NCBI GenBank assembly: GCA_020073085.1
Contig: JAIQFV010000002.1
Span: 376,875 to 440,874, forward strand
Reading direction: 5' to 3'
Length of the DNA stretch: 64,000 nt
Source: Terriglobia bacterium
GTDB taxonomy: Bacteria; Acidobacteriota; Terriglobia; JAIQFV01
Of the stretch, positions 20,900 to 59,961 are shown piece after piece. A model generated the notes under the pieces. That model ran no database searches. It saw only the letters and a list, made by a program, of their open reading frames with translations, and was not told the origin of the DNA. Each line of letters opens with the position of its first letter. Position 1 is the first letter of the stretch. The translations under genes and the position numbers were made by a program.

Positions 20900-23574
20900 A
20901 CCGCTCGAGCTTTTTTCGACGAGACGTCCTTCTCCGACTGGGGTTGAAACAGCATGACACCCCTTTCGAGGTCGGCATCGACCTGCAGCATGTCTCCCGT
21001 ATGGACAATCCCTTCCAGCAGCTGCATCGACAACGGATTGACGATCAGGCGCTGGATGGCCCGTTTCATGGGACGGGCCCCATACTGCGGATCAAATCCC
21101 TCGCGCAACAGCAGCTCGCGGGCAGGGTCGGTGAGGGAGATCCCGATGTTGCGTTCCGTCAGCATCCGCTCGAGGTGGAAGATCTGGAGGTCGATGATCT
21201 TCTGGATTTCGTTCCGCCCCAGCGAATGGAAAATAATGATGTCATCCACGCGATTCAGGAACTCGGGCTTGAAGTTTTCCTGCATGATCTGCATCACCTG
21301 TTCCCTCAGGCGCGACTCGATGTCGCCTGCGGAGACTCCATGTTTCCGGTCCTCTTTGTGCGAGCTGCTGAACCGCGCCTGAAATTCCTGGATCATCGAG
21401 GAGGCGAGGTTCGAGGTCATGATCAGGACGGTGTTTCTGAAATCGATCGTCCGCCCTTTGCCGTCAGTTAGTCGGCCATCATCGAGGATTTGCAGCAGCA
21501 CGTTGAACACGTCGCTGTGCGCTTTCTCAATTTCATCAAACAAAACGACGGAGTACGGGCGGCGCTTGATCGCTTCCGTCAGCTGCCCCCCTTCCTCATA
21601 TCCCACGTAGCCGGGCGGCGCCCCGATCATGCGGGACACGGAATGTTTCTCCATGTACTCGCTCATGTCGAGGCGCACCATGGCATGTTCGTCGTCGAAG
21701 AGGAATTCCGCCAGGGCGCGGGCCAACTCCGTTTTTCCCACGCCGGTCGGCCCCAGAAAAATGAAGGACCCGATGGGACGCTTGCGGTCCTGCAGCCCCG
21801 CCCGACTCCGCCGGATGGAATTGGAAACCGCCACCAGGGCTTCTTCCTGTCCGATGACCCGGGCCCGGAGGCGATCCTCCATCTTGATCAGCTTGGCCAC
21901 CTCTCCTTCGAGCATCTTGGAGACCGGGATGCCGGTCCAGCGCGAGACGACCGCCGCAATATCCTCTTCGTCCACTTCCTCCTTGAGGAAACGCCCATTC
22001 TCAGACCGGGCCAGGAGTTCGGCGTTCTGTTTCTCCAGCTCTCTTTGAGCGCCCACCAGCGCGCCGTAGCGGATTTCTGCCACCCGCTGGTAATTCCCCT
22101 CGCGTTCCGCCTTCTGCTCTTCCAGCCTGAGGCCCTCGATCTGTTCTTTCAGCTGCCGAATCCGGGCGATGTGCTCCTTCTCGGACTGCCAGCGCAGCTT
22201 CATCTGGCTGGACTTTTCCCGGAGTTCGCTGAGCGAGAGCTCGATCTTCTGCAGCCGCTCTCTGGAGGCCGGATCGTCCTCACGCTTCAACGCCTGCTTT
22301 TCGATTTCGAGCTGCATGATATCGCGTTCGAGCTGATCGATCTCCGTCGGCATCGAATCAATCTGAATCCGCAGGGAGGATGCGGCTTCGTCGACCAGAT
22401 CGATGGCCTTGTCCGGCAGAAAACGGTCGCTGATATAGCGGTTCGACAGGGTAGCCGCCGCGATGATGGCGCTGTCCTTGATTTTCACGCCATGATGAAC
22501 CTCGTAACGCTCCTTCAGTCCCCGCAGAATCGAGATCGTATCCTCGACTGTGGGCTCTCCGATATAGACCTGCTGAAAACGCCGTTCGAGGGCGGCGTCT
22601 TTCTCAATGTATTTCTTGTATTCGTTAAGGGTGGTGGCGCCAATGCAGTGCAATTCGCCGCGTGCCAGGGCCGGCTTCAACATGTTGGAGGCATCGATGG
22701 CGCCCTCGGCGGCGCCCGCGCCGACCACGGTGTGGAGTTCGTCGATGAAGAGAATCACCTGGCCCTCGGCTTCATTGATCTCCTTCAAGACGGCCTTGAG
22801 CCGGTCTTCGAACTCGCCCCGGTACTTGGCGCCTGCCACGAGCGCCCCCATGTCGAGGGCCACGATCCGCTTGTTCTTGATCGTCTCCGGGACATCTCCC
22901 GCCACAATGCGGCGGGCGAGTCCCTCCACGATGGCGGTTTTTCCGACGCCCGGCTCGCCGATCAAAACGGGATTGTTTTTCGTGCGGCGCGACAGGACCT
23001 GGACCACGCGCCGGATCTCATCATCGCGGCCGATGACGGGGTCCAGCTTTCCCTTGCGTGCCAGTTCGGTCAGATCGCGGGCGTACCGCTCCAGGGCCTG
23101 GTATTTGTCCTCGGGATTCTGATCGGTCACCCGCTGTGAACCACGGATGGTTTGAAGCACCTTGAGAATCGCATCCCGGGTGACGCCGTGCCGCTGGAGG
23201 ATCTTCTGGGCGGCGTCGTTTTTCTGGTCAGCAATGGCCAGCAGCAAGTGTTCTGTGGAAACATACTCGTCCTTGAACTGATCGGCTTCCTTGAATGCCT
23301 TTTCAAACACCTGGTTGAGCGTGGGGGCGATGAATTGCTCGAAGCCGCTCGTGACCTTGGGCAGGCGCGACAGTTCGGTCTCCACCTCGCCCAGCACAGC
23401 GTTGGTCGAGACCCCGAGCTTCTGCAGCGCCGGCACCACCACGCCTTCGGGCTGCAGCAGAAGCGACATCAGCAGATGGATTGGCTCCAACTGCTGATGG
23501 CCTTGCTTGGAGGCCACGTCCTGCGCCGCCTGAACGGCTTCCTGACCTTTCAATGTGAATTTATCGAATCGCAT
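20896..23574 (-). CDS. clpB: ATP-dependent chaperone ClpB
   Basis: Two AAA+ modules with Walker A motifs ([16 protein letters not shown]), coiled-coil middle domain, Clp N-terminal domain. Confidence 0.95.
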
Positions 23575-32604: not shown

Positions 32605-32831
32605 TATATAGGCCTCTAAATCAGACCGTCGGGAAGAACGGAACCACTCCCGCTTCCCAACCCTTCCTGTCTCGACACCGGCTACCCGCCTCTGCTGTGG
32701 TGGTCCGGTGTCATACCCCTCCTTCGATTTCTCCTGAACCCGGATTCTCTGTTCTGCGAAAACACTCAACTTGTCGTATCATAGCAAGAGGTTCGGGGCA
32801 GGAGGTTCATTTACCCCAGGAGGCCCACTCA

Positions 32832-34583
32832 ATGAGACTGTCACACGTCGTAATCTTTTTTATTGTTTTTTCTTTCATCGGAATCACCCCCGGCAAGGCA
32901 CAGAGTTCCGGCACTTGGTCACTCGACAAGGATGGTGAGAAATGGGTGGAGGCTACGCTGAAAACGCTCTCACGCGACGAGAAGATTGGCCAACTCCTCA
33001 TTCCGGTCACAACCGGGCAATTCACTGCCCTCGACAGTGATGCATTTGCGAAGATCAAGGAAAACATCCAAAAATACCATGTCGGGGGATACCACGTTTT
33101 TGGAAATGAACTGGTCAGCGGCGCGTTGCTGATCAACCGCATGCAGGACCTTGCACAAGTCCCTTTGATGATCACGGCGGATTTCGAAGGGGGAGTAGGG
33201 TACCAGTTCCGGGATGCGACACGGTTGCCGCGAGCCATGGCCATCGGGGCCACCGGGGATCCCAACTTTGCTTACCAGGCAGGCAAGACGGCCGCCGAGG
33301 AAGGGCGGGCATTGGGCGTGCTGGTGAATTTCTATCCGGTCGTGGATGTAAATAACAATCCCCGCAACCCCATCATCAATATCCGCTCATTCGGGGAGTC
33401 GGTCGACGCGGTAGAGAAGATGGCGGTGGCCTACATTCAGGGAACCCATGACGGCGGCATGATGGCAACCGCCAAGCATTTTCCCGGCCATGGAGACACC
33501 AGCGAGGACACGCACTTGATGTTGCCCACTTTGACGATCGACAAGGATCGGCTCGAAAAGGTGGAACTTCCCCCCTTCAAGGCCGCCATACACGCCGGGG
33601 TCGATGCCGTGATGAGCGCGCATATTTATTTTCCGGCCCTCGAACCGGAAAAGGGCGTTCCCGCGACCCTCTCAAAAAACATCCTCACCGGACTGCTGCG
33701 CGATGAGCTGAAATTTTCGAATCTGATTTTCACTGATGCGATGGATATGCATGGTGTGACGGCCTCGTTTTCCCGGGAGGAAGCCACGGTTCGCGCGGTC
33801 CAGGCGGGGGTTGATTTTGTCCTCTTTATTCCGGACGTTGCAACCTCCTTCAATGCGCTGAAAAAGGCATTGGAGACCGGGGTCCTCGACGAAGCCCGAA
33901 TCGACCAGTCCGTCCGGCGAATCCTCCGGGCCAAGGCGGCCATGGGCCTTCACAAGAACCGCTATACCGACATCACCCACCTGGATATGGCTATTTCTAC
34001 GAAGCCACACCTCAAGGTCGCACGCGACATCGCTGAGAATGCCACGACGCTCATCAAGGATGAGAAAAACGTCCTGCCGCTCCAACTGAAGCCCACGGAC
34101 CGGGTCCTGATCCTCAACGTTTACGACAGCGCCACAGGCTGGCGCGAGGGCAAGCCGGGAGGCGTCTTTGTGCGGGAATTTCAGACGCGGCATCCCGGCA
34201 GTTTGGTGATTGAACTTTCGGATTTGACGACGCTGCCGGAATTCGAATTAGTCCGCAAGGTGCTCCCGGATTTCAACATCATTCTGATCAACACCTTTGC
34301 CCGGGTCGCTGCCTACCGCGGCTCGATCAACCTGACCGAAAACGAAACTTTTTTCTTAAAGCAACTGGCCACTGTGAACAAACCCGTGATCACCACGGTG
34401 TTTGGTAACCCTTATATCCCGATGTCGGTTCCGGAGTTGCCGGCGTTTGTCCTGACATTTGAAATCTATCCCGACGCGGAGCTCGCGGCGGTCGAAGCCC
34501 TGACAGGCGAGATCCCGTTCCGGGGAAAACTCCCGATCAGTTTGCCGGGTATGTTTGAGTTGGGATGGGGGATGAAGAAGTAG
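32832..34583 (+). CDS. glycoside hydrolase family 3 protein (beta-N-acetylhexosaminidase / beta-glucosidase-like), secreted
   Basis: GH3 N-terminal domain motif KHFPGHGDTSEDTH; signal peptide from MRLSHVVIFFIVFSFIG; AGGAGG ribosome-binding site. Confidence 0.85.
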   Translation: MRLSHVVIFFIVFSFIGITPGKAQSSGTWSLDKDGEKWVEATLKTLSRDEKIGQLLIPVTTGQFTALDSDAFAKIKENIQKYHVGGYHVFGNELVSGALLINRMQDLAQVPLMITADFEGGVGYQFRDATRLPRAMAIGATGDPNFAYQAGKTAAEEGRALGVLVNFYPVVDVNNNPRNPIINIRSFGESVDAVEKMAVAYIQGTHDGGMMATAKHFPGHGDTSEDTHLMLPTLTIDKDRLEKVELPPFKAAIHAGVDAVMSAHIYFPALEPEKGVPATLSKNILTGLLRDELKFSNLIFTDAMDMHGVTASFSREEATVRAVQAGVDFVLFIPDVATSFNALKKALETGVLDEARIDQSVRRILRAKAAMGLHKNRYTDITHLDMAISTKPHLKVARDIAENATTLIKDEKNVLPLQLKPTDRVLILNVYDSATGWREGKPGGVFVREFQTRHPGSLVIELSDLTTLPEFELVRKVLPDFNIILINTFARVAAYRGSINLTENETFFLKQLATVNKPVITTVFGNPYIPMSVPELPAFVLTFEIYPDAELAAVEALTGEIPFRGKLPISLPGMFELGWGMKK

Positions 34584-42338: not shown

Positions 42339-42602
42339 TCTCCAAATTGTGTTCGCTACAAGTAAAGCCTATCTCACTCCGGGCGGATATGACTGTGAGT
42401 ATTCTTACAGCCGATGCAAATTGATGTAACCGGCGTTTGCGAAAGGCGGGGTGGCATCAGCCGGGGGCGATCCTTCACTCGATGGCCCCGTGGGAGGACG
42501 GCAGAGGGGATCCGCGGTATCTTCCCCCTGTAACGGGTTGCATTTGAAATCTGTTTACGGACGATGTCATGATAGGAGATACTCTTTCGAAATTGGTGGA
42601 CT

Positions 42603-43484
42603 TTGATGAATGAGCGATTCGTTGTGAACCCCTGCCTTTCGCGAAAAGGGCACTCTGCGCCCCACCTGCAGCGTCGCACGAGTGCATCGGACCATGTCTC
42701 ATGCGCCTTGTGGTTGCTTTGTGCGTTGCTGCTGGGCACCATGCCGGGCCTCCCCGCCCAAACGGGGCCTTCCACTGAAAAACCTCTCCCTGACCTTCAG
42801 TCGATCTTGACAGGGATGGCGAAGCACAACCAATTTCGCGATCACACCCTCCAGACGTATTCTGTCGATCGGATTTACAAGGTCGAAAACAAACGATTTA
42901 ACAAATCGGCTGAAGTGGTCGCCAGGATGATCTTTGTCGCCCCCGGAGAGAAGCTCTTCGAAATTCATTCCACCGCGGGCACCGGGTTTATGCGCAAGGG
43001 TGTGATTAACCGCATCATCGAAACCGAGCAGAAAAATGCGGTGCCGGACCAACAGTCCAAATCCGCGATCAGTCCCGACAACTACACGTTTCAATTGCTG
43101 GGCCGAGAGGTGCGCAAGGGGCGTGAGCAGTATGTGCTGCATGCGAAGCCCCGGCGAAAGGATCTGCTGCTCTTCGATGCCAAAATCTGGGTGGACGCCG
43201 AGGATTTCGCAGTCACCCGGATCGAAGGGCGCCCCGCGAAAAACCCCTCCTTCTGGACCCGCAAGGTTGATTTCACTCACGAATATGAGAAGTTCGGACC
43301 CTATTGGATGCCAGTTCGAAACCGCTCCATGACCCAGGTGTTCATATTCGGACAGACCACCACCGAAATCGTTTATTCGAATTATCAAATCAACAAGCCG
43401 GAGCTAGCGGAGCGAGCCGCAGAGATCCGAAGACGAGGGGACAAGCTGGAAATACAGATTGATTCGAAAGATAAGAAACAGTAA
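42603..43484 (+). CDS. hypothetical secreted protein (possibly LolA-like fold)
   Basis: Signal peptide (ALWLLCALLLGTMPGLPAQ); no firm family assignment. Confidence 0.35.
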   Translation: MMNERFVVNPCLSRKGHSAPHLQRRTSASDHVSCALWLLCALLLGTMPGLPAQTGPSTEKPLPDLQSILTGMAKHNQFRDHTLQTYSVDRIYKVENKRFNKSAEVVARMIFVAPGEKLFEIHSTAGTGFMRKGVINRIIETEQKNAVPDQQSKSAISPDNYTFQLLGREVRKGREQYVLHAKPRRKDLLLFDAKIWVDAEDFAVTRIEGRPAKNPSFWTRKVDFTHEYEKFGPYWMPVRNRSMTQVFIFGQTTTEIVYSNYQINKPELAERAAEIRRRGDKLEIQIDSKDKKQ

Positions 43485-43680: not shown

Positions 43681-45480
43681 TTAGGAAATTTGGACTACCT
43701 CATCCCCCACCAATCGTTCATCCCTTACGGCATGCCCAACTGAGAAGTGATAGACCACCTGGCCACGGTCCGGGGTGAGCTGAAGGAATTCATGGACGGC
43801 GTCATCATAGAAAGCCCCGATGCCGGTCGCATTGAATCCGAGCGCTTCAGCGGCCAGGTAGAGCTGTTGTCCGATGAACCCGGCTTCATTGTGGCAGTAC
43901 CGGTAGGCGCGATTGCCGAAGGCCTTCAGGGCTATGTCGAGATCGGCCACCATCGAAAACGTAACGCACGAATTTCCGGCGAGCGACTGCTCCAGACTCA
44001 GGTAGGCAGCGGCGTGTTGTATATTAGCCTTGGCGTATTGCTCCAGGGCGTGCTGCCGCGGATGGTAAAGATAGAGGCCCGCCTCCAGATCCCGGACCCG
44101 GTGCACATAAAGATAGAGACGGATCCAGTCACGACCCCGGATTGCTTCTTCCAGGACCGTATGATCCTTTGACGGCAGATTCATTTTCCAGTCCGCACAA
44201 AACCCCGCCTGCGCAGCCGACATTAACGCGGAGAATTGTTCGAAAGTGATGTCTCCTTTTTGCGGATCGTAATTCAGAGCGGAGCGGCGTCGCCTCACCA
44301 CGGTCCCGATAATCTCGCAGGGTAGGGCGACAGCCGGGAGATTGATCCGCGGATGTTCGAACTCCTCACCCGCTCTCTCGGGCTCCGGCGTCAGTGCTTG
44401 GGAAGGGAACTCATCAACATCAAGAAGCAGGGTCGATTGATGCACGGCGTCAATCAGGGGATACGGGACGACCTGGTCCGAAAGTGCATTCGGCGTTCCC
44501 ACGATCGGCGTGAGGCAGACGTCCTTGTCTGCCTCCATTTGCGAATTTCCGGAGACGCGCTCTCCGCGATCCGGCGAATTTCTTGCCGGAGGTCTTTCTA
44601 AATCCTCCCGCCGCGGCCAAAGTGGCAGGATTAACATTGGCCATTCGTCTGTCTGATCGATCCCCAGGATTTCTGCGACGGCTCCGTCAGGAAAATTGCC
44701 GACCAGGCATCCGTTGAAACCGAGCGCTCGGGCGGCCACGAGAATGGAGGCCGTTGCGTGACCCAGATCATGATTGCAATACCGGTAAGCGCGGCTGCGG
44801 TATTTCCAGGCCTCACGCCAGAAGATGGACGTGAGGACAACAATGATCGGGCATTGGGCGATCCAGGGCTTCTTGACCAAGCCCGCAAGGGGGGCCGACA
44901 GGCTGCCTTGCCGGCGGCATTCCAGCTCATGCTCGAGCACGAAATAGTGATAAATCCCGTCTCGTAAGCCCTGGCAGCCGTTCGTGATGAGATGGGCTTC
45001 GGTGGGATGCAAGTTTCCGGACGAAGGATTGACGCGCAGGGAATAGCGGATGTCTGTCCCCCGGATCTGCTTCCACGCGCTGATCGCCATGGAATGCCAC
45101 AACAGGTTGCCCAGCAGGACGTTCCCGTGGATCGGGCTACCGCCGCTGGTTGCATTCGCCTCTGGGAAGGAACGCGGGTTTCTCAATTGGGAATGGCTCA
45201 GCAAGATCGGCAGCGTCTCGATGACAGGCAACTTCGAATCACGCGGCAACCTGATGGTTTCCGCACCTCGGTAGGAGCGAAAGGGGTTGGGCTGATTTGC
45301 CCAATCGAGGTAATGTGCATGGGTTCGAACGGATTCATAAGTGTGTTTAGTGTTCTCGTGGTAAGAGAGCGCCCGAAGAATCTCTCCGTTTAGAGATTTC
45401 ACCCGGTTTCCCGGCGTTGAAATGGTCATAGAAGGATCCGCTGCAGCGACTTTCTTCGGCGCGACAGGGCGGTCAATCAA
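43681..45480 (-). CDS. SagB/ThcOx-type dehydrogenase (tandem nitroreductase-like domains)
   Basis: Two nitroreductase-fold halves with the conserved RxxxSxG...YRYxxH region typical of SagB-type dehydrogenases; start uncertain (TTG 45480 or ATG 45429). Confidence 0.6.
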   Translation of the reverse strand: MIDRPVAPKKVAAADPSMTISTPGNRVKSLNGEILRALSYHENTKHTYESVRTHAHYLDWANQPNPFRSYRGAETIRLPRDSKLPVIETLPILLSHSQLRNPRSFPEANATSGGSPIHGNVLLGNLLWHSMAISAWKQIRGTDIRYSLRVNPSSGNLHPTEAHLITNGCQGLRDGIYHYFVLEHELECRRQGSLSAPLAGLVKKPWIAQCPIIVVLTSIFWREAWKYRSRAYRYCNHDLGHATASILVAARALGFNGCLVGNFPDGAVAEILGIDQTDEWPMLILPLWPRREDLERPPARNSPDRGERVSGNSQMEADKDVCLTPIVGTPNALSDQVVPYPLIDAVHQSTLLLDVDEFPSQALTPEPERAGEEFEHPRINLPAVALPCEIIGTVVRRRRSALNYDPQKGDITFEQFSALMSAAQAGFCADWKMNLPSKDHTVLEEAIRGRDWIRLYLYVHRVRDLEAGLYLYHPRQHALEQYAKANIQHAAAYLSLEQSLAGNSCVTFSMVADLDIALKAFGNRAYRYCHNEAGFIGQQLYLAAEALGFNATGIGAFYDDAVHEFLQLTPDRGQVVYHFSVGHAVRDERLVGDEVVQIS

Positions 45481-45567
45481 ATTGGATAACGGTCCGTCAA
45501 GATTTTAACAGATGAGGGGGGCAACCCGATTGGATTCTTCCAGAAGGCCGTCAAGGACCGGTCCTTC

Positions 45568-48500
45568 TCATGCCTGTTTCTTCCGATGTCGGGTGAGTGG
45601 CAGCGGATTCGGCGGGCTGGGAGTGCCACTGTCCAGAATTTCGCGAACCTTGCGTACGAGAGTATCCGGCGTGAACGGCTTTTCAAGGAAGTGCGTGGAC
45701 GAATCGAGGATGGAATGGTGACCGATGACATCATCCGTGTAACCGGACATGAACAGCACTTTCAGGTCCGGACGGCGCGAGTGGAGGAGTTTGACTAGTT
45801 CAGGGCCATTCATCTCCGGCATGACCACATCGCTGAGGATCATTTGAATCGGGACCGGGCTTTGTTCACAGAGTTCAACGGCTTCCTTGGAGTTGCGGGC
45901 TTCCTGGACGGTATAACCATTCATCTCCAAGGTCTCACGCACCAGGGCACGGACCCCCACTTCGTCCTCAACCAGAAGGATGGTCTCGGAGCCCCGCCGC
46001 GGGAAGGCAAGGGATTCCTGTTTAAGGGTCTCTGAGAGCGCTTCTTCAACGCGTGGCAGATAAATCTTGATGGTCGTGCCGCGCCCCGGCTCGCTGTACA
46101 CACGCACATTGCCGGCACTTTGTTTGATGATTCCAAACACCGTGGAAAGTCCGAGGCCGGTCCCTTTCCCGCGCTCTTTGGTCGTAAAGAACGGCTCAAA
46201 GATGCGATCCTGTGTTTCCTTGTTCATTCCCGTCCCGGTATCACTCACCGCCAGCATCACGTAGGGGCCCGGATGGTAGGCCAGATGCCGGTGAGCAAAG
46301 CTCTCTTCAAGCTCGACGTTCCGGGTTTCGATGATTAACCTCCCGCCCTGGGGCATGGCGTCGCGCGCATTTACTACCAGGTTCATGATCACCTGTTCCA
46401 ACTGCCCGGCATCGGCCTTCACGCGGCCCAGGGCGGGGTCGAGGTGGGCGACCAACTTAATGTCCTCCCCGACCAGCCGATGCAGCATCCCTTTCATTCC
46501 CTCTGCGATCGCGTTCAAATCCAGGATGGTCGGCTTGAGAACCTGTTTCCGGCTGAAGGTGAGCAGTTGCCGCGTCAGGGCCGTGGCGCGGTCAGCGGCT
46601 TTCTTGATCTCATCCAGGCTTCGACGGTGAGGGTCTTCCTCGGGGAACTGCATCGCAAGCAGGTTGGAGTACCCTGCAATGGTCGTGAGGATATTGTTAA
46701 AGTCGTGGGCCAAGCCTCCGGCCAGTCTGCCCACCGCTTCCATCTTTTTCGAATGTTGAAGTTCCTCTTCGAGGGCGCGACGCTCGGTCACGTCGCGGGC
46801 GATGACCTGAACCCCGATGGTCTCTTTGCCGTGGTGAATGGGACGGCTGCTGATTTCCAGTTTGATCCGACGCCCGCCCTTCGCGATGACGTCCAGTTCC
46901 TGCGTGCGGGCGGAGCCCTCCGCGGATTCCTGTTCGAGGATGTGGCGGGCGACCTCCGCGCTTTCCGGATCGACCAACTGGGCAATGTTCAAGGTGCGAA
47001 GGGCCTCCTGCCGGGTGTATCCGAATATATTTTCACCGGCCTTGTTCAAGGAAATGAAGCGGCCCTTCAAATCGGCCGTGAAAATGATATCGTTGGCATT
47101 CTCAAATAGCTCACGGTAGCGAAGGGCGCTTTCGGTGAGCGCCTCTTCGGCCTGACGTCTCTTGCTGATGTCCTCCACCACGCTGATAAAGTGCCTGGGC
47201 TCCCCTGAGGAATCCCGCCGCAAGGAGACCGTCATATGCACCCAGATTGTGGAACCATCCTTGCGGCGATAGCGCTTTCCTGCGCTGTAGGACGGGATCT
47301 CCCTCATCAGGAGTTGCCGGCGGGCCGCAAGGTCGGCCTCAACCTCTTCGGGGTAAGAAATATCCTGGAACCGCATCGAGAGTATCTCATCCCGGGTATA
47401 CCCGAGGATGTCGCAGAGGCGTCGGTTCACCACCAGAAATTTGCCGTCCATCCCGGTATGGGTGATGCCGACCGGCGCTTCGTCGAAGGTCGCCAGGTAA
47501 AGTTCTTCGCTTTCACGCAGCGCTTCCTCCGCACGCTTGCGCTCGGTCACGTCTGCAAGCGTCCCGGAGACGCCGATGATCTTATTTGTTGGGTCGACCA
47601 TGGGCCGGGCATGAGTTTCGATCCACTTAAACGCTCCACCGCGAGTCAGGTATCGGACTTCACAACGGCAATCCTCCCCGGGATGTTCAAAGAGGGTCTG
47701 AAATTTCTCTGTAATGTAATTTCGGTCTCCGGGATGAACATAGTCCAGGAGATGCTTCCCCAGGCTCTCTTCCACCGTGAAACCGGTAATCTCCGCCCAT
47801 GCCGGATTCAAAATGACCCATCGACGACTGGGATCGACCTGGAAGATCACCTCTCTCACACTATCGACGAGCAGCCGATACCTTTGCTCGCTGTCCTGCA
47901 GGTCGCGGGAGGCGGTAGAGCGGGAGGCTTCGAAGTGTCGGTTCAGAGTCTCCAGTTCAGCCATCCGCGCTTCCAAGTCCTGGTTGAGTGTCTGGATTGT
48001 TTCATCGGCTCGCTTTCGCTCGGTCATATCCCGGGTCACTTTGGAGAACCCTCGCAACCTTCCCTGTCGGTCGCGCAAGGCGGTAATGACCACATCGGCC
48101 CAGAACTCCGATCCATCCTTCCTGACCCGCCATCCTTCGTCTTCGAGCCAGCCTTCCCGGGCGGCGGTTCGAAGCTGCAGCTGTGGCTTGCCGGCTCGAA
48201 CGTCTGCCTCGGTGTAAAAACACGAAAAGTTGCGCCCGATGATCTCTTCCGCCCCGTATCCCTTGATGTGCTCTGCGCCCGGGTTCCAGCTGGTGACATT
48301 CCCCGTTCGATCCAGCATGAAGATGGCATAATCCCTGACGCTCTCAACGAGCAAACGAAAACGCTCTTCGCTCGTCTGTAACGACCTGGTCTTGAGGGCC
48401 AGGCCAGAATCAGAACGGGGTTTACCCTGGGTTTGAAGATCACCCTGATACGCTCTCCTGCGGGATCTTCCTGTGCTTTTCCCGCCTTCCTTTCGCAGGA

Positions 48501-48927
48501 CTTCACGAACAGCGGAAGAGACCTTCTTCACACTGGATATAAGGGTCGCGTCAGGTACACCCGGGCCCTTCATCCTCCTGCGCGCTTCTTTGCGGTGGGG
48601 GTCGGTAATGAGGATCCAGGGGATATCGGTTTTCTCTGACGGGATAATTCGAGCAGCGTGGGCTGCTACGGACGGGGGTCTCTTCTCCATGGCCAGAATG
48701 ATGTTGGGGGCGAAGTCTTTGATATGCTTGGCGAAAGCCCGCTCACTTCTGACCCGCTTCGCCGTGAAATCGATCCGGGCGCGGCGCAGTTGGCGCTCGA
48801 TCAACTCCGCATCAGTCGGGCTGGTCCGAACCAGGAGAATCCGCGCTTCGTGGTTCATCGGCGAACCTTCCACTTTCCCCGTCATAGGCCGCGAAATGAC
48901 GGGTGTGCCCAGGACTTGCAGCGGCAA
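45568..48927 (-). CDS. hybrid sensor histidine kinase with multiple PAS domains and C-terminal receiver domain
   Basis: Repeated PAS modules, HisKA phosphoacceptor His (LAHDFNN), HATPase_c motifs, C-terminal receiver (LLVEDE...D...K); start uncertain (48927, 48885 or 48858). Confidence 0.85.
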   Translation of the reverse strand: MPLQVLGTPVISRPMTGKVEGSPMNHEARILLVRTSPTDAELIERQLRRARIDFTAKRVRSERAFAKHIKDFAPNIILAMEKRPPSVAAHAARIIPSEKTDIPWILITDPHRKEARRRMKGPGVPDATLISSVKKVSSAVREVLRKEGGKSTGRSRRRAYQGDLQTQGKPRSDSGLALKTRSLQTSEERFRLLVESVRDYAIFMLDRTGNVTSWNPGAEHIKGYGAEEIIGRNFSCFYTEADVRAGKPQLQLRTAAREGWLEDEGWRVRKDGSEFWADVVITALRDRQGRLRGFSKVTRDMTERKRADETIQTLNQDLEARMAELETLNRHFEASRSTASRDLQDSEQRYRLLVDSVREVIFQVDPSRRWVILNPAWAEITGFTVEESLGKHLLDYVHPGDRNYITEKFQTLFEHPGEDCRCEVRYLTRGGAFKWIETHARPMVDPTNKIIGVSGTLADVTERKRAEEALRESEELYLATFDEAPVGITHTGMDGKFLVVNRRLCDILGYTRDEILSMRFQDISYPEEVEADLAARRQLLMREIPSYSAGKRYRRKDGSTIWVHMTVSLRRDSSGEPRHFISVVEDISKRRQAEEALTESALRYRELFENANDIIFTADLKGRFISLNKAGENIFGYTRQEALRTLNIAQLVDPESAEVARHILEQESAEGSARTQELDVIAKGGRRIKLEISSRPIHHGKETIGVQVIARDVTERRALEEELQHSKKMEAVGRLAGGLAHDFNNILTTIAGYSNLLAMQFPEEDPHRRSLDEIKKAADRATALTRQLLTFSRKQVLKPTILDLNAIAEGMKGMLHRLVGEDIKLVAHLDPALGRVKADAGQLEQVIMNLVVNARDAMPQGGRLIIETRNVELEESFAHRHLAYHPGPYVMLAVSDTGTGMNKETQDRIFEPFFTTKERGKGTGLGLSTVFGIIKQSAGNVRVYSEPGRGTTIKIYLPRVEEALSETLKQESLAFPRRGSETILLVEDEVGVRALVRETLEMNGYTVQEARNSKEAVELCEQSPVPIQMILSDVVMPEMNGPELVKLLHSRRPDLKVLFMSGYTDDVIGHHSILDSSTHFLEKPFTPDTLVRKVREILDSGTPSPPNPLPLTRHRKKQA

Positions 48928-49273: not shown

Positions 49274-50509
49274 TTAATCCAGGACCAGCACGGCCATCTT
49301 GCCGTCGGTGATGAGTTTGTCGCCCGTGGCGTTACTGCTCTCCTTGGGAACGGCCGGCCGATCAACCAGGAAGTAGCTCTTGGCCTTGCCGGAAAGAAGC
49401 AGATCGTACATCACCTTGGAGCGCTCGCGGTCAATTTGGGAATCGATCTTGTGGATGAAAGTTCTGTTTTCGGGTGAAAACTCGATGGCGATATCATGGG
49501 TGGCGGCACAAACCCAGACCCCTTTTCCTTCAAAAGTATCGGGACGCCTCCAGATGCGGAGATGGTGGCGTTTGGAGAAGGTGTTGTTTTGCTTTTGAAA
49601 GACCAGGTCGGGCTTATTTCCATCGAGCAAGAGGATGGACATCGGGGCTTCTTTGTACCCCCGGTTTTCGACGACCGCACGGACTGTTTCCAGACCCGAT
49701 TGGGAATTCAAAGCGGCGGCAGCGACCCACCCCGCCGCTGTGAAGGCTGCTTCGACTTGCTCCTGGGATCCCACGTACATCAGGTTCGTCATGTCCGAGG
49801 GTTTGGGCGGTTTTTCCGCGATCGTTTGAAACGGCTCAGCATTGACGAGCCTGGTGAGTTGAGGATCAGGGGAGCCGGAACCGTCCTTGTAGCCACCCGT
49901 TGCCCCTGCCAGACCGCTCAAATCCGGCTTGTCGAGGATCTGCAGCGTCATCTCTACGCCCGGTGAATAATCGATCTCCGGCTGCGGCTCCTTGATAATG
50001 GCTCCCTTTGCGGCAGTCAAGATATCGGCCAGTCCCGCCAATTTACCGCCCATCTTTCCCAAGCCTTCATCCATTCTTGAAGCCAGGGTTTCTGAGGCAA
50101 GAATGCCTACAATCCCTCCCTTGTCATCGACGGTCTCCCGGGCGTTATCCACGCCAACGACCTTAGTTGTCAGCTTAATCTTCTTGCCGCTCGACACTTC
50201 CAGTTGGTTGAAATCCAGGAGCAGGTATGCGCGTTGATCGGCTTTCCCGTCGGTCGACTTGACCTCTTTGATCTTTCCGTACAACTTCGTGCCCGGCGGG
50301 ATGACAGATTTGGTTCCCATCCGGACCGGGGCGAGAACGACCCCCTCGACGCTGTCTCCAGCCTTGGAGCTATTGCTGGCGACCTTCGAGGCGAGTCGAA
50401 TGTCCATTTCCGTCTTGGACGAAGGCTTGATAACGATGGGCAGTGTCAGGGTAGAAGACACCGCAAGAATGAACCCAGCGGCGAGAAGTCTTCGAATAAG
50501 CATAAGCAT
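49274..50509 (-). CDS. secreted protein with LssY-C-terminal-like domain
   Basis: Signal peptide; C-terminal region with conserved HH...W...HDI...HKID motifs reminiscent of the LssY C-terminal family. Confidence 0.35.
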   Translation of the reverse strand: MLMLIRRLLAAGFILAVSSTLTLPIVIKPSSKTEMDIRLASKVASNSSKAGDSVEGVVLAPVRMGTKSVIPPGTKLYGKIKEVKSTDGKADQRAYLLLDFNQLEVSSGKKIKLTTKVVGVDNARETVDDKGGIVGILASETLASRMDEGLGKMGGKLAGLADILTAAKGAIIKEPQPEIDYSPGVEMTLQILDKPDLSGLAGATGGYKDGSGSPDPQLTRLVNAEPFQTIAEKPPKPSDMTNLMYVGSQEQVEAAFTAAGWVAAAALNSQSGLETVRAVVENRGYKEAPMSILLLDGNKPDLVFQKQNNTFSKRHHLRIWRRPDTFEGKGVWVCAATHDIAIEFSPENRTFIHKIDSQIDRERSKVMYDLLLSGKAKSYFLVDRPAVPKESSNATGDKLITDGKMAVLVLD

Positions 50510-50822: not shown

Positions 50823-51662
50823 TCAAACGGTTTTTGCCGGTGCCGCCGGAATGTTCGGCAGCGGCTTTCCCTGGCCCGGCCCGTGCAATTTCTGGCACGG
50901 TTTTTTGCGGCGTGCGAGGTGAAGGTAATCCAGCACGAGCTGGCGCTTCAGATACTGAATGGCCTTGGCGGGATCGACTCCCTTGGGGCACGCGCGGGAG
51001 CACTCGCCGGCATAGTGACAGCGGAAGGCGCCGTGTGAGGTACCCGTGAACTCGTTGCGGTCGCGCCGGCCCTCATCGCGGGTATCCTTGTCGTATCGCT
51101 CTGCCGCAGCCAGAGGCATGGGTCCCAAATACCGCGCGTCGGTGGCGAGGGTGGGGCAGGCGGCCATGCAGCAGCCACACTTGATACAGTAGGCGAATTG
51201 AAGATAGGCCTCAAGCTCCTCGGGGGACTGGTAGAACTCCCCCTCCGCGGTATTGATCTCGGCTTCATCGGCGCGCACGATAAAAGGTTTTATGGAACGG
51301 TGTTTATCAAACATCGTCATCAGATCGGGGACCAGGTCGCGGATGATTTCGAAGTTGGGCAGGGGCCCCACGGTCAGATCCGTGTTGGCGATGTGCAGGA
51401 TCTGGGTGTTGCAGGCGAGCGTCGGCCGGCCGTTCAGAAGCATGCCACAGGAACCGCAGACCCCCATGCGGCACGAATAGCGCCAGGCCAGGGTGGGATC
51501 CACATTCTCCTTGATGTAGTGCAATCCGTCCAGCACCGTCATCCCTTCGCGGACCGGGATCCGGTACGACTTCACGTAGGGGGTTCGATCGGTTTCAGGA
51601 TTGAATCGCGTGACGTGGAAATTGATCTCTCTGGTGGTCTTGTTGTTTTCCGGCATGGTCAT
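50823..51662 (-). CDS. sdhB: succinate dehydrogenase / fumarate reductase iron-sulfur subunit
   Basis: 2Fe-2S (CRMGVCGSCG), 4Fe-4S (CIKCGCCMAACP) and 3Fe-4S (CHYAGECSRACP) cysteine clusters. Confidence 0.9.
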   Translation of the reverse strand: MTMPENNKTTREINFHVTRFNPETDRTPYVKSYRIPVREGMTVLDGLHYIKENVDPTLAWRYSCRMGVCGSCGMLLNGRPTLACNTQILHIANTDLTVGPLPNFEIIRDLVPDLMTMFDKHRSIKPFIVRADEAEINTAEGEFYQSPEELEAYLQFAYCIKCGCCMAACPTLATDARYLGPMPLAAAERYDKDTRDEGRRDRNEFTGTSHGAFRCHYAGECSRACPKGVDPAKAIQYLKRQLVLDYLHLARRKKPCQKLHGPGQGKPLPNIPAAPAKTV

Positions 51663-52042
51663 CCCCTTCCTCCCGCGATCGCGATGGCATGTGTTGCAAT
51701 GGCCGCCCAAGTGCCCAGGCCGAACAGTCCCAGCCCCACCACCAGAAGCACAAAGGTGATGGCCTTTTCGACGGCGGGCTTCAGCGTCAGCTCAAACAGG
51801 ATGGTCCGCAGCCCGTAAAGGCCATGGTAGAGCGCCACGCCGAGGAGAAGAATGTAAGTGACTGTAAAGAAGATCCGGCCGTCACGATAGAGGCTGTTTT
51901 CTTTGGAAATGGCCTCGCCGCTATTAGGAGCAAAGAGGTGAGTGATACCCCCCACGTGCATGATGAGCATGTGAAGGCCGAGCAGGAAAAGGATGACCAC
52001 TCCCGCCGTCATGTGCCAGGTCCAATATTTTGTTTCGTGCAT
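51659..52042 (-). CDS. sdhD: succinate dehydrogenase hydrophobic membrane anchor subunit (SdhD-like)
   Basis: Small three-TM protein with conserved His, between sdhC and sdhB; 4 nt overlap with the sdhB start. Confidence 0.55.
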   Translation of the reverse strand: MHETKYWTWHMTAGVVILFLLGLHMLIMHVGGITHLFAPNSGEAISKENSLYRDGRIFFTVTYILLLGVALYHGLYGLRTILFELTLKPAVEKAITFVLLVVGLGLFGLGTWAAIATHAIAIAGGRG

Positions 52043-52050
52043 TTCTCCTC

Positions 52051-52488
52051 CTACTTTCCCAATCCTAGGAATTCAGAGCCGCCCGCAGCGAGAAGAATCG
52101 CTGCCAGGATCATCATGACGATCAGCAGGGGCCGCTGGACGTTCAATGAGGTCTTGTAGGGATAAATCGGTTCGATAGGTTTGCCTACGGCAAATCCAAG
52201 TTCCACCAGCACCAGGCGGACACCGTTCAGGGCGTGATACGCAAAAGCGGCGAAAACCAGGAACTCCCCGAATTTGAAGATGGGCTGGTGGAAGAATCCC
52301 CCTTCGACCCAGAGGTACTGGCCGGTGGCGCGCAGGCTGGTCACTACAACGTGCATCAGAAAGTATAAGAGAATGGCCAGTCCGGTGAGGCGATGCAGGA
52401 TATAAGCGTAGCGCTCAATGCCCCAGCGCCCGCCCCCGAGCCATCCCCATACCCCGAGGCGATTGTCGTGTCTCTTGATTTCGGCCAT
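52051..52488 (-). CDS. sdhC: succinate dehydrogenase cytochrome b subunit (SdhC-like)
   Basis: Three TM helices with haem-ligand His context (HRLTG...H...NG); AGGAGG ribosome-binding site. Confidence 0.6.
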   Translation of the reverse strand: MAEIKRHDNRLGVWGWLGGGRWGIERYAYILHRLTGLAILLYFLMHVVVTSLRATGQYLWVEGGFFHQPIFKFGEFLVFAAFAYHALNGVRLVLVELGFAVGKPIEPIYPYKTSLNVQRPLLIVMMILAAILLAAGGSEFLGLGK

Positions 52489-52510
52489 GCCAGCCTCCTT
52501 GAGTCGAATT

Positions 52511-52735
52511 CAGGTAATAGGGGATAGGTTTTAGGTGATAGGGAACAGGTTCCAGGCAATAGGGAAACAAGACGAGCGATCAATCCTCGGGACCAATAAC
52601 TCAGCCCGAACGATCAGTCGACGGCACATCTCTTGCATCGTTCCCCCAAGCCACCCCTGCCACCGATCATCAATTACCTACTACCTATTCCCTACTACCT
52701 ACCACCTATTTCCTATCACCTACTACCCATCCCTA
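52511..52735. repeat. bipartite intergenic element (GGTAATAGG / AATAGG flavour) between sdhA and sdhC
   Basis: Left arm ggtaataggggataggttttaggtgatagggaacagg pairs with right arm cctactacctattccctactacctaccacctatttcctatcacc. Confidence 0.75.
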
Positions 52736-54448
52736 ATACTTCCTCTCCACCGGTTTCCAGTTGGTAATCGTCACGGGCTTGTATTCCAGCCGCGGCTTAC
52801 CACCGGTGCAATACACCATGGAATGTGCCAGGAACTTTTCATCATCACGCTTCGAGAAATCCGTCCGGGAATGGGCCCCGCGGGATTCCTGGCGTGCCTG
52901 ACCGGCGAAGAGCAGCACCTCCGCCAACTCGAGCATGTTTTCAGTTTCCAATGCCTGGATGAGGTTGGTGTTGTAGATGCGGGTCTTGTCCTGGATGGAA
53001 ATCTTTCGAAAGCGTTGCCTCAGATCGGCAATCTTGTCCAGGCCTTCCTTCATGGAGTCGCCGGTGCGGTAAACCCCGGCGTGCTTGTCCATCAGTGTCC
53101 GAAGTTCACGGCGGATGAGGGCCGGGTTCTCCGTTCCACTTTGTTTGAGCAGACCATCAAAAACGCGGCTCTCTTCTTCCCGGACTTTGGCCTCCGGCAT
53201 CGCACTCAGCGTGGTGCCTTTGGTCAGGAACTTTGATATTTCACCTCCGGTAATGCCGCCCCACACAAGGCATTCGGCCGTGGAATTGCATCCCAGACGG
53301 TTGGCGCCGTGCATGGAGTGGCACGCCACCTCCCCGGCCGCCCAGATGTTCTCCACCTTGGTCTGGCCGTTGATGTCGGCCTCGATCCCTCCCATGGCAT
53401 AGTGGGCCACGGGCCGGATCGGGATGGGCTGAGTGATGGGGTCGATTCCCAGAAATTTCATACACACTTCACGGATCAGCGGGAGGCGGTGGTTGATGCG
53501 GTCGGCGCCAAGGTGGGTCATATCGAGGTTAATATAATCGAGCCCCTCGGGTCCCGGAAAACCGCGTCCCTCGAGAATTTCCGTCATCTCCGATCGCGAC
53601 ACGATATCGCGGGGCGCCAGTTCCATCATCTTGGGCGCATACTTTTCCATAAACCGCTCACCCTTGTTGTTGCGCAGGTAGCCGCCTTCCCCGCGACACC
53701 CCTCCGTCATCAGGATGCCCGAGGGCACCAATCCGGTCGGGTGAAACTGCAGAAACTCCGGATCTTCCAGGGGCAGGCCGGCGCGGAAGGCGATGGCCTG
53801 TCCGTCACCCGTGACGGTTTGGGAATAGGTCGTGAACCCATAGAGGTTCCCCAGGCCTCCGGAAGCGAACAGGAGCGCCTTTCCGCGCAAAACGTAGAAC
53901 TCACCGGTCGGGGCATCGAAAAGCGTGAGGCCGGCAAACCGACCGCCCTCGAGGAGCATCGCCGTGACGAAACACTCGTCGTAGCGCTTGAAGTTGTTGT
54001 ACTTGACCAGGGTGTCATAGAGGGCCTGCATTTCCATGAAGCCGGTCTTGTCGGCGGCCATGCAAGCGCGCGGGAAAGAATGCCCGCCAAACGGACGCTG
54101 CATGATCCGCCCGTCGTCGCGGCGTGACCAGGGGACCCCCCAATGCTCCAGGCGCCGGATCTCATCCGGCGAAGTCCTGACAAACCGATCCACCGTGTCC
54201 TGGTCCGCCAGGAAATCGGCGCCTTTGACCGTGTCCCAGGCGTGCAGCTCGAGGCTGTCTCCTTCCTCGGGGCGCATCATCGCAGCGGTGCCCCCTTCGG
54301 CACACACCGAATGCGAGCGCATGATCTGGACCTTCGACACGATTCCGATGTCGGCTTTGCCCTGCGTTCGAATGCAGATTTCCACGGCGGCGCGCAGTCC
54401 GGCCAGCCCGGTGCCCAGGATTAGTACATCATGAGTTATTTGTTGCAT
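52733..54448 (-). CDS. sdhA: succinate dehydrogenase / fumarate reductase flavoprotein subunit
   Basis: FAD-binding GxGxxG ([14 protein letters not shown]), covalent-FAD His region ([10 protein letters not shown]), conserved catalytic blocks. Confidence 0.95.
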
Positions 54449-55257: not shown

Positions 55258-56031
55258 TCAGGGTAGCTGTTGCTTCAAGGCGGCAATGAAATCACCCAAC
55301 TCTTTAGGGTTGAGATCGGAGACTGCCCAGTAAGTCATTTTTGACTTCGCCCAGTGGACCACATGGTAACCCTTTTGTGAGAGGGCTGTTTCGGTCGCGT
55401 TCGCATCCTCGGGCGACGGCCAAATGAACAAATTGATAAAATGTTGCCGTCGCTGATAGATTAGGGCAGCCACCGGTTTTCCGCCGAGGTAGTCGATGCG
55501 GCCTCCGATGAGGCGAAATCCGTGGTCTGCCAGGTCGACGACGGTGGGTGAGAAATCAACCTTTCCGTTGAACCAGGGCTTCACCGTATGCTGATCGGAG
55601 GAGGGCACATCGGTCAAATGGCTGAGCATCAGCGAACGAACATGGCTGTCGATGATCTCCTGGGTCAGGATCTCGTCAGCGGACTGTCTGGAAAAGTGCG
55701 GCGCCACATTCCATGTGATTAATGCAACCAGCACGAGAGAGGCCGCCACACTCGCCCACCGCAGGGGCGACCACCCTCCCGACAGCCATACGCGGCGCCC
55801 TGAAGGCGATTTGCCACGGATTGTATCCTGAACGCGGTGATGCAGGGTGCCGGGTGCCTTGAAGTAAAGGGAATTGGAGCCGAGCACGGACCGCAATTCT
55901 TGCAGTTTCTGGTATTCGGTGGAACACGCCGAACACTCTTGAAGGTGCGCCTCGACCTCAACACTTCTGACGAGGTCAAGTTCGCCGTCAAGATAGCCCT
56001 CGAGGAGGGGTTGTACTTCCTTGCAGCTCAA
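55258..56031 (-). CDS. anti-sigma factor (zinc-finger type, transmembrane)
   Basis: N-terminal HxxxCxxC zinc-binding anti-sigma motif (VEVEAHLQECSACS), TM helix, periplasmic domain; directly follows the ECF sigma gene. Confidence 0.7.
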   Translation of the reverse strand: MSCKEVQPLLEGYLDGELDLVRSVEVEAHLQECSACSTEYQKLQELRSVLGSNSLYFKAPGTLHHRVQDTIRGKSPSGRRVWLSGGWSPLRWASVAASLVLVALITWNVAPHFSRQSADEILTQEIIDSHVRSLMLSHLTDVPSSDQHTVKPWFNGKVDFSPTVVDLADHGFRLIGGRIDYLGGKPVAALIYQRRQHFINLFIWPSPEDANATETALSQKGYHVVHWAKSKMTYWAVSDLNPKELGDFIAALKQQLP

Positions 56032-56032
56032 A

Positions 56033-56554
56033 TCACGACTCCTTCTTCATCGCTTTGAGGAGGTTTTGACGGAGCCGTTTGCGGGCCCGCGCCAGGCTTG
56101 ACATGACGGTCCCGATGGGAACTCCCGCTATATCGGAAATCTCCTTGTAGGACAATCCTTCCAACTCACGCAAAACCAGGATCTCTCGAAAGGTCACCGG
56201 CAATTCTTCCATCGCCTGCTGAAGCATCCGACCATCGGCATTCGCCAGGAGCGGCTTTTCCGGGCTGAAGACCTGAGCATCACTGGTGTGCACCTCTTCG
56301 TCAAAGACGGTTTCCAATTCCTGCCTCCGGTTCCTTTGCAGCCATGAATAGCAGGTATTCCGCACTATCGTGAGCAGCCAGGAACGGCTGTCCCCGCCCT
56401 TGAATCCCCCAAAAAACCGGAATGCACGTAGGTACGATTCCTGCACGAGGTCTTCCGCATCATGCCCGTTGCGGGTTAACCATCGGGCGAGGTTGTGAGC
56501 GGCATCCAGGTGCGGCAAAAACATCTGCTCAAACCGCGCACTTGCCTCGTCCAT
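56033..56554 (-). CDS. ECF-family RNA polymerase sigma factor (sigma-70 group 4)
   Basis: Region 2 (DLVQESYLRAFRFF) and region 4 helix-turn-helix (LSYKEISDIAGVPIGTVMSSLARAR). Confidence 0.9.
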   Translation of the reverse strand: MDEASARFEQMFLPHLDAAHNLARWLTRNGHDAEDLVQESYLRAFRFFGGFKGGDSRSWLLTIVRNTCYSWLQRNRRQELETVFDEEVHTSDAQVFSPEKPLLANADGRMLQQAMEELPVTFREILVLRELEGLSYKEISDIAGVPIGTVMSSLARARKRLRQNLLKAMKKES

Positions 56555-58575: not shown

Positions 58576-59823
58576 TCACTTGGTCGGCACCCAATTCTCC
58601 AGGAACCCTTTTCCTCCGGCTTTTTCCCGCTCTTCGACGAGAGCCTGAAAGATGGCGCGCAACTGGGCATAGGGCAGAGTTCCGATGATCATCCGGTTAT
58701 TGATGATCAGGGTAGGAGTGGAGCGGATGCCGTGTGCGTACTTTTCTGAGGTCTTTTCGTACTCGCTGCCGGTATTAGTAATCCGCTGGACGAGCTCCTT
58801 CGTCTTCGGGTCATTAAGTGCACCTTCGACCTGGTATCTCTTCGCCAGGGCAATTCGCCAGACCGGATCCTTGGCTTTTTCGAAATTCGCGAAGATCTCA
58901 TCATGGATTTGCGTAAACTTGGCCGGGTCGTAGGCCGCCAGGTAGGCGAGATCGCAGGCCCCCGGATGCTTGTCCTTCTCGACCACCTGGTTACACCGGG
59001 CCTCCAGCGGGAAGAACTGGTAGGCGACATTGATCTTCCCCTTGAATTCCTCCTTGAGCTTCCCCATCTGCTGCGTCAGAAAAAGACAGTCCGGGCAGAG
59101 AAAATCGGCGTACTCGATGATCTGGATGGGGGCGTCCTCAAACTTATCGGTCGACCGGATGGTTCGGTACGGTGAAATCAGGCTGGGGGACTTCACCACG
59201 GCCAGATTGTAGTATTGAGTCACCACCCGCGCGGCCACACCACCGGATTGCGCATCCCGCCGGGCATGATGAAAAAGAACCATCCCGTAAGCGCCGAGCA
59301 GCGTGACAATGGCAAACGTCGCCAGATGCTTCAGGGAGGGGCTGACATATCTCGAGATCCATCCTGGGCTCTCACGGTCGATTCCGTATCTCCAAAAAAG
59401 GGCGAAGCTGGCGATGGAGAAAAGATAGTAGCCGGTACACAGAAGACACAAGCTCTTGAGATAAAGGACCGAGAAGAGAAACAGCCCGGCCACACCTGCA
59501 AAATTGGCGATCGAAAGCGTCCTGTTGGTTCGTTCCAGATCGGCCGAGGGGAATACTGCTCCCAGGGAGACCAGGGCCCCGACGAGAAGACCAAAGTATC
59601 CCAGCGGGACGCCTCGCACTTGAGAGATGACTGAAAATGCGGAACTTTCGCAGTTAAAGAAGGAATTGATGTCACAAAACGAACCGGCATAGATGGAGGT
59701 CGGGTAGTTTGCCAGGAAGAAATGCCGGATCGTCAGGACAGAGAAAACCATCATTCCCAATCCGAAGAGAAAGCTTAGCATTCGAGACCAGGCCTTGCCA
59801 TTCAGGGTTAAGGATTCTTGCAT
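58576..59823 (-). CDS. vitamin K epoxide reductase (VKOR) family protein fused to a DsbA-like thioredoxin domain
   Basis: N-terminal multi-TM VKOR-like region with Cys pairs (CDINSFFNC, CLLC); C-terminal thioredoxin fold with CPDC active site. Confidence 0.7.
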   Translation of the reverse strand: MQESLTLNGKAWSRMLSFLFGLGMMVFSVLTIRHFFLANYPTSIYAGSFCDINSFFNCESSAFSVISQVRGVPLGYFGLLVGALVSLGAVFPSADLERTNRTLSIANFAGVAGLFLFSVLYLKSLCLLCTGYYLFSIASFALFWRYGIDRESPGWISRYVSPSLKHLATFAIVTLLGAYGMVLFHHARRDAQSGGVAARVVTQYYNLAVVKSPSLISPYRTIRSTDKFEDAPIQIIEYADFLCPDCLFLTQQMGKLKEEFKGKINVAYQFFPLEARCNQVVEKDKHPGACDLAYLAAYDPAKFTQIHDEIFANFEKAKDPVWRIALAKRYQVEGALNDPKTKELVQRITNTGSEYEKTSEKYAHGIRSTPTLIINNRMIIGTLPYAQLRAIFQALVEEREKAGGKGFLENWVPTK

Positions 59824-59961
59824 GTGGACCTGCCTGATGATGTTGGATTGGAACAACTTGGCAATGCCGAAGAGGCTTAGGAGAGGAGTTCCTAGATTCG
59901 TCCGGACCGCCGCGCTCGCTTACTGCGTTCAATCAGAAGATTGAATTTCATACACCCCCAT

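Follow-up and report, generated by a model that had tools for sequence, protein, structure and literature searches.

We analysed a 64-kb window from a Terriglobia bacterium (by "the window" we mean the whole stretch of 64,000 nucleotides) around a SagB-type gene at positions 43681-45429 on the minus strand, which lies downstream of a gene for a hybrid sensor histidine kinase at positions 45568-48858 on the same strand. The protein of 582 amino acids (aa) encoded by the SagB-like gene is likely a stand-alone flavin mononucleotide (FMN) dehydrogenase that folds as a pseudo-dimer with a single active site, uses a Lys-Tyr pair as its base and acts on a substrate that does not come from a YcaO cyclodehydratase, while its adjacency to the kinase gene is likely incidental. 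It adds one member to a large, functionally unassigned family of tandem proteins that is already labelled in databases.

Both open reading frames (ORFs) were found intact on the minus strand, at 43681-45480 and 45568-48927, as originally predicted. The lengths given in that prediction (599 and 1119 aa, with a gap of 87 bp) are correct for the ORFs as read from their first TTG codons, at 45480 and 48927, and do not hold for the ATG starts that homologues support. For the SagB-like protein, the favoured start is ATG 45429, which yields 582 aa, as in a database protein (P0001) that is 100% identical. For the kinase, the orthologues from two related loci (L001 and L003) favour ATG 48858, which yields 1096 aa, with an alignment that begins at residue 24 of the longer ORF. 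Because database gene calls and homologues favour these two starts, the intergenic gap is likely 138 nt (45430-45567).

A tandem SagB-type protein of the 3EO7 group

To classify the SagB-like protein, we searched it against the profiles of NCBIfam and Pfam. The TIGR03605 model ("SagB family peptide dehydrogenase") matched in two stretches, one per domain, with a score of 212.3 bits against a cut-off of 78.4, and the Pfam Nitroreductase profile likewise matched the ORF in two stretches (1.2e-29). The protein is thus of the SagB type, in agreement with the SagB/ThcOx-type tandem identity that had been predicted, and is not placed in an ordinary nitroreductase family. The only other NCBIfam model returned was TIGR04511 (putative peptide maturation dehydrogenase), which is linked to ribosomally synthesized peptides with post-translational modifications (RiPPs) and scored 129.9 bits, below its cut-off of 240; no profile match to the Acg/Rv3131-type tandem nitroreductase-like family was obtained.

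The protein begins with an N-terminal extension that carries the segment YHExTKH/LDWxNQPxPFR, followed by domain A (approximately residues 100-275, with PSSGNLHP and W208-K209-Y210), a linker (approximately residues 275-360) and domain B (approximately residues 375-575, with R379-R381-R382-S383). The two domains are homologous, with 30% identity over 113 residues. We aligned 18 homologues with identities down to 45% and found more than 120 invariant columns. These include Y23-H24...T27-K28-H29 and L41-D42-W43...Q46-P47...P49-F50-R51 in the N-terminal extension, R132-V-N-P-S-S-G-N-L-H-P-T-E144, W208-K209-Y210 and R213-A-Y-R-Y217 in domain A, and R379, R381-R382-S383 and G505-N-R507...Y509-R-Y511 in domain B. 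The K209-Y210 pair of domain A aligns exactly on K201-Y202 of McbC (numbering counted from the alignment). The pair is missing from domain B, where the corresponding position reads K-A-F in the window protein and G-N in the family, and the RRRRS flavin-phosphate motif is found in domain B with no counterpart in domain A.

We then compared the predicted structure to solved ones. The AlphaFold2 model, computed with the 18 homologues, reached a predicted TM-score (pTM) of 0.82 and a mean predicted local distance difference test (pLDDT) of 73, with values below 50 at residues that include 83-98, 128-141 and 275-303 and that stay low up to approximately residue 360, so that the linker is modelled with low confidence. 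A Foldseek search of the PDB with this model returned a single full-length match, 3EO7 (E-value 5e-34, TM-score relative to the target (TMt) 0.77, 570 aligned columns), and the next matches, to BmdC, ThcOx and McbC, each covered a single domain. The link to 3EO7 was also recovered with phmmer (E-value 2e-45), which aligned residues 20-271 to residues 10-238 of 3EO7 and residues 434-565 to residues 378-508.

The window protein belongs to the 3EO7-type group of tandem SagB-like proteins. 3EO7 is the putative nitroreductase Ava_2154 of Anabaena variabilis (511 aa), a structural genomics entry from JCSG (Joint Center for Structural Genomics) whose function is unassigned, and our literature search turned up no work on what 3EO7-type proteins do. 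Both proteins have the two-domain tandem SagB-like architecture and the N-terminal YHExTK...LDWxxQPxPF segment. They differ in that they share only about 24% identity in the Foldseek alignment, that 3EO7 carries R-Y where the window protein carries K-Y, and that the linker of the window protein is longer (about 85 residues, predicted with low confidence). The "nitroreductase family protein" At1g02020 from Arabidopsis was reported to model onto 3EO7 with a root-mean-square deviation of 0.73 Å (PMC7538488). Because of this fit we place At1g02020 in the same tandem family, its relation to the window protein running through 3EO7 only; it differs in being eukaryotic and organelle-targeted, and its function is likewise uncharacterised.

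A set of known enzymes, namely McbC (microcin B17), ThcOx/CyaGox (cyanobactins), BmdC (bacillamide) and SagB, likewise carry a SagB-type domain, a PSxGxxxP loop and the Lys-Tyr pair. These azoline dehydrogenases, however, are homodimeric enzymes with a single catalytic domain; their partner is a YcaO/E1-like cyclodehydratase or a module of a non-ribosomal peptide synthetase (NRPS), and they often carry RiPP recognition element (RRE) or docking domains. The window protein, by contrast, is a fusion of two domains, and neither a YcaO nor a precursor or NRPS is found nearby or in related loci.

Sequence and predicted fold show that the two diverged nitroreductase-fold domains pack within one chain as an intramolecular pseudo-dimer, which mimics the homodimer formed by ordinary nitroreductases and by McbC or ThcOx. 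Because the motifs decay in complementary fashion between the domains, we infer one composite FMN site at their interface, to which domain B, having lost the catalytic Tyr, would provide the RRRRS flavin-phosphate motif, and domain A, devoid of the RRS motif, would provide the PSSGxxxP loop and Lys209-Tyr210. That the cofactor would be FMN is suggested by the RRRRS motif of domain B and by the fold. In the catalytic pair of McbC, the Lys activates the Tyr, which removes the alpha-proton of the azoline while a hydride is passed to N5 of FMN (PMC6395948). By analogy, Lys209 would activate Tyr210, which would take an acidic alpha-proton, with hydride transfer to N5 of FMN. The reaction would be an alpha,beta-dehydrogenation of a substrate other than a YcaO-made azoline in a RiPP, and the reverse chemistry, that of an NAD(P)H-driven reductase, is possible.

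Gene neighbourhoods across the family and a probable 96-aa partner gene

We scanned the window with Pfam, covering 42 ORFs, that is all those of approximately 290 aa or longer except three that were recognised by eye (ClpB-like at 20896-23574, ribonucleotide-reductase-like at 30166-32547 and glycoside-hydrolase-3-like at 32697-34583). No YcaO was present among the 42 scanned ORFs, no transporter was found in the window, and the small ORFs in the intergenic regions flanking both genes included no convincing precursor with a Cys/Ser/Thr-rich core. Within the window, the earlier observation that YcaO, precursor and transporter are absent from the surroundings was therefore confirmed, and with it the description of the redox enzyme as "stand-alone". 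Because the YcaO, precursor and TIGR04511 tests all came out negative, we exclude the window protein from the thiazole/oxazole RiPP systems, also known as thiazole/oxazole-modified microcins (TOMM) or linear azol(in)e-containing peptides (LAP).

To assess how widespread the protein is, we performed a word-indexed search that retrieved at least 7812 proteins at an E-value threshold of 1e-10 among 8000 scored candidates, mostly from Acidobacteriota/Terriglobia, which, where sources give a name, are called "SagB/ThcOx family dehydrogenase" or "SagB-type dehydrogenase family enzyme". An exhaustive search of the representatives of 50%-identity clusters yielded 769 clusters at an E-value threshold of 1e-30, 4181 at 1e-10 and 11190 at 1e-3, and most of the best 150 cluster representatives were 500-620 aa long and aligned over their full length. 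We then sampled 86 loci, taking in as much as 10 kb to either side, called ORFs and clustered the neighbouring genes. A 96-aa ORF was the only neighbour that recurred across the 86 loci. In 35 diverse loci, the 135 genes found at most two positions away from the SagB-like gene represented 126 different Pfam families, the commonest of which, aldehyde dehydrogenase, occurred 4 times, and YcaO was not found as a recurrent neighbour either among these 135 genes or among the neighbour clusters of the 86 loci.

Since the neighbourhoods are varied and hold no recurrent YcaO in the sampled loci, the tandem proteins form a stand-alone family in which the lack of a cyclodehydratase is the norm. The original prediction had implied that a SagB-type protein with no cyclodehydratase is an oddity; this did not survive the comparison, as tandem members had no YcaO neighbour at any sampled locus. 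For annotation and genome mining, a tandem SagB-type match with no YcaO should not be counted as a broken or cryptic thiazole/oxazole cluster.

In 52 of the 86 loci, the recurrent 96-aa ORF starts 7 nt past the SagB-like stop codon (for example L016:11778-12068 on the plus strand, L017:8409-8699 and L029:11690-11980), with the consensus MxGILVxGxNHFIVRGPxPxRxTALALAxHWSxIQI...STREFRENLxWAVxVPGDGE...QLLxELxxRGI. We retrieved 1554 homologues of its product, all of those with a source name being called "hypothetical", with at least 70% identity among the top 120. Pfam and NCBIfam scans of the 96-aa protein gave no match, and its AlphaFold2 model was poor (pLDDT 57). On a neighbour-joining tree of the family, the 96-aa gene was present in both major clades, and the clade of the window formed a separate long branch that does not have it; a tblastn search found nothing similar anywhere in the window. 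The 96-aa product is probably a partner or subunit of the tandem SagB-like enzyme.

More tentatively, the tandem SagB-like proteins may be widespread YcaO-independent flavin dehydrogenases with a dedicated substrate (a protein, a peptide or a small heterocycle), whose 96-aa partner is translationally coupled in most Acidobacteriota; the clade of the window would have lost this partner and may be under a different control, conceivably that of the PAS kinase. We regard this wider picture as possible rather than probable. The family makes a reasonable target for function discovery: its 50%-identity clusters number in the hundreds, a structure (3EO7) has been solved and homologues occur in plants, yet its reaction is unassigned, and the retained Lys-Tyr pair and the coupled 96-aa partner of other lineages offer footholds for experiments. 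The family-wide 96-aa gene, which lies outside the window, is a more interesting lead than the locus of the window, which matters little in itself, being one more labelled family member whose link to the kinase does not hold.

The same data bear on whether the window protein could be a generic NAD(P)H-dependent nitro- or quinone reductase that lacks a dedicated substrate and serves in detoxification or redox stress. The nitroreductase fold is compatible with such a role, and reduction of metronidazole and niclosamide was reported for a stand-alone enzyme of the SagB subgroup obtained from soil DNA (PMC10055417), but that enzyme is a single-domain protein of 187 aa and not a tandem one. Both the very strong conservation of the K-Y pair, of YHExTKH/LDWxNQPxPFR and of many further positions across members that are 45% identical and the tightly coupled 96-aa gene of most other lineages argue instead for a specific reaction, and we consider a generic reductase unlikely.

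Some Acidobacteriota genomes encode two paralogous tandem SagB-like genes, as in L051 and L054 (both on contig CAVPUS010000014, approximately 32 kb apart) and in L069 and L082 (from the same metagenome-assembled genome). Rare fusions of approximately 1030 aa were also found, two of which (P0273 and P0290) have a weak aldo/keto-reductase-like match at the C-terminus while a third (P0287) matches Nitroreductase only, and P0361 (1200 aa) joins a tandem SagB-like unit to two PCMT-type (protein isoaspartate) methyltransferase domains. We set these fusion partners aside as clues to function, as they are rare and give no consistent signal.

The upstream kinase and the spacer

Pfam confirmed the predicted multi-PAS hybrid histidine kinase, with four PAS domains, HisKA (3.9e-11), HATPase_c (6e-22) and a C-terminal receiver (Response_reg, 5.6e-22), in that order; a degenerate receiver-like domain precedes them at the N-terminus. 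As read from the translation, the H-box is HDFNNIL and the Asp of the C-terminal receiver (ILSDVVMP) is intact, and the protein qualifies as a hybrid sensor histidine kinase. None of the NCBIfam equivalogs reached its cut-off for this protein, the best being a CckA-like model (511 bits against 1000). The N-terminal 153 aa (48400-48858, minus strand) match the receiver region of LvrB at 1.4e-9; because the translation shows other residues at the acidic pocket and in place of the phospho-acceptor Asp, this N-terminus is a pseudo-receiver. The kinase thus shares HisKA, HATPase_c, a C-terminal receiver and several PAS domains with CckA-like and LvrB-like kinases, as well as an N-terminal receiver-like domain with LvrB, and differs from them by a score far below the equivalog cut-offs and by the loss of these receiver residues. 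PAS domains often bind flavin or haem. The first PAS domain reads GRNFSCFY by eye, rather than GRNCRFLQ, the motif of LOV (light-oxygen-voltage)-type photosensing domains.

We searched the sampled loci for a kinase directly upstream of the SagB-like gene and found one in six loci only, from four distinct relatives: L001, L002 and L007 (82% identity between SagB-like proteins), L003 and L008 (72%) and L088 (71%), the kinase of L088 being 74% identical to that of the window. These kinase-bearing relatives are collinear with the window over more than 20 kb. The shared order runs from zf-HC2, sdhA, the sdh cytochrome subunit, sdhB and LssY_C through the kinase, the SagB-like gene and the LolA-like gene, and continues with a metallophosphoesterase, a beta-eliminating lyase, an isocitrate/isopropylmalate dehydrogenase-type gene, BON, an acyl-CoA dehydrogenase and GH3. 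Since the whole region is collinear in the kinase-bearing genomes, the adjacency of kinase and SagB-like gene shows only recent common ancestry.

In locus L087, whose SagB-like protein is 64% identical to that of the window, the LssY_C orthologue (L087:3-587, 83% identical to window positions 49277-49834) lies directly upstream of the SagB-like gene, across a spacer of 224 bp that holds no kinase, so the kinase gene of 3.4 kb was either gained by one lineage through insertion or lost from the other by deletion. No adjacent kinase was found in approximately 75 loci at 40-48% SagB identity, four of which have a histidine kinase six to ten genes away. A conserved kinase-enzyme gene pair is therefore ruled out, the adjacency being limited to relatives with at least 71% identity and lost in L087. 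The LssY_C and LolA-like genes were also considered as conserved partners and ruled out, as both are confined to the collinear clade.

The kinase and SagB-like genes are separated by 138 nt in the window (45430-45567, minus strand), as against 163 nt in L001 and 266 nt in L003. This spacer carries an extended -10-like block, TCTGTTAAAAT at 45512-45502 on the minus strand, whose pattern TCTGnTAnnAT is invariant in five relatives, L087 included, and is followed by a conserved GGnAC...CCAnT stretch. We regard this block as a candidate promoter or operator. Since it is conserved even in the kinase-less L087, the SagB-like gene most likely has a promoter of its own that is retained regardless of the upstream neighbour. 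A consensus scan detected no terminator and no sigma-70-type site in the spacer; the sole promoter-like site that it returned was at 42544-42573 on the plus strand. A 14-nt palindrome, AAGGACCGGTCCTT at 45566-45553, is located just after the kinase stop codon and was ruled out as a terminator or operator, as it is not conserved in L001 and has no T-run.

The functional or co-expression coupling to the kinase that had been put forward with the original prediction is not borne out by these comparisons, since the arrangement occurs only in collinear relatives with at least 71% identity, is absent from L087 and from the approximately 75 distant loci, and leaves the promoter-like element with the SagB-like gene. 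One could still picture the kinase and the enzyme as a co-transcribed module, in which the enzyme would make or remove a redox-active ligand of the PAS domains or would be the output of the signalling. The two genes are on the same strand, 138-266 nt apart, their order is kept in the six loci at SagB identities of 71-82%, and no terminator is predicted between them. The collinearity, however, which extends from sdh as far as the acyl-CoA dehydrogenase gene, makes the adjacency uninformative, the spacer is long, differs in length between loci and contains the conserved -10-like element, LssY_C precedes the SagB-like gene with no kinase in L087, and no cognate histidine phosphotransfer (Hpt) protein or response regulator is encoded nearby. 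We consider such a module improbable, and the gene most likely follows a PAS kinase because one narrow lineage of Terriglobia inherited this order.

An orphan azoline dehydrogenase acting in trans with a YcaO and a precursor encoded elsewhere in the genome, for which one can cite the TIGR03605 score above cut-off, the Lys-Tyr pair kept as in McbC, ThcOx and BcerB-type enzymes and the 64 kb of genome covered, appears very improbable given that characterised azoline dehydrogenases are single-domain homodimers and the window protein a fused pseudo-dimer of the 3EO7 type, that TIGR04511 reached 130 bits against 240, that no YcaO recurs near the sampled family members, and that the family is too abundant and housekeeping-like, with two copies on one contig in the case of L051 and L054.

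Several points nevertheless weigh against a stand-alone, single-site FMN dehydrogenase that is independent of the kinase. Arg233 of McbC, proposed to stabilise N1 of FMN, is not conserved in the window protein, where a Cys of domain A takes its place in the alignment, which leaves room for a different chemistry. The single-site FMN model is drawn from motifs and not from coordinates. The YcaO scan covers 64 kb of the genome, and the organism may have a distant YcaO cluster. Finally, the kinase and the SagB-like gene share a strand with no terminator detected between them, and co-transcription by read-through from the kinase into the SagB-like gene is possible.

Other genes of the window

The gene next upstream of the kinase, at 49274-50509 on the minus strand, encodes a 411-aa protein with an LssY_C domain (Pfam, 8e-49). 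Downstream of the SagB-like gene, a convergent gene at 42603-43484 on the plus strand encodes a LolA_like/TP_0789-like protein of the lipoprotein-sorting fold (Pfam LolA_like, 1.6e-7); it is likewise present in L001 and L003 and sets the downstream limit of any putative transcription unit.

Further upstream, a succinate dehydrogenase/fumarate reductase set occupies 50823-54448 on the minus strand, with the flavoprotein at 52733-54448, two small membrane subunits at 51659-52488 and the iron-sulfur subunit at 50823-51710, and it is preceded by a pair formed by an extracytoplasmic function (ECF) sigma factor and a zf-HC2 anti-sigma factor at 55258-56554. The other scanned ORFs of the window are ordinary chromosomal genes, including those for an amidase, an amidohydrolase, GlpX, QueA, a beta-eliminating lyase, an acyl-CoA dehydrogenase and an aldehyde dehydrogenase. 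At 58576-59856 (minus strand), a VKOR (vitamin K epoxide reductase) domain is fused to a DsbA/thioredoxin-like domain. A 461-aa protein at 19271-20656 (minus strand) gave a marginal match to Radical_SAM, with 29.8 bits against a cut-off of 29.5. At 13438-15003 (plus strand), the translations of two adjoining genes, which begin with MALFCSKCG... and MAAFCPNCG..., show an N-terminal zinc-ribbon-like CxxC...CxxC pattern, a proline-rich stretch and a membrane segment.

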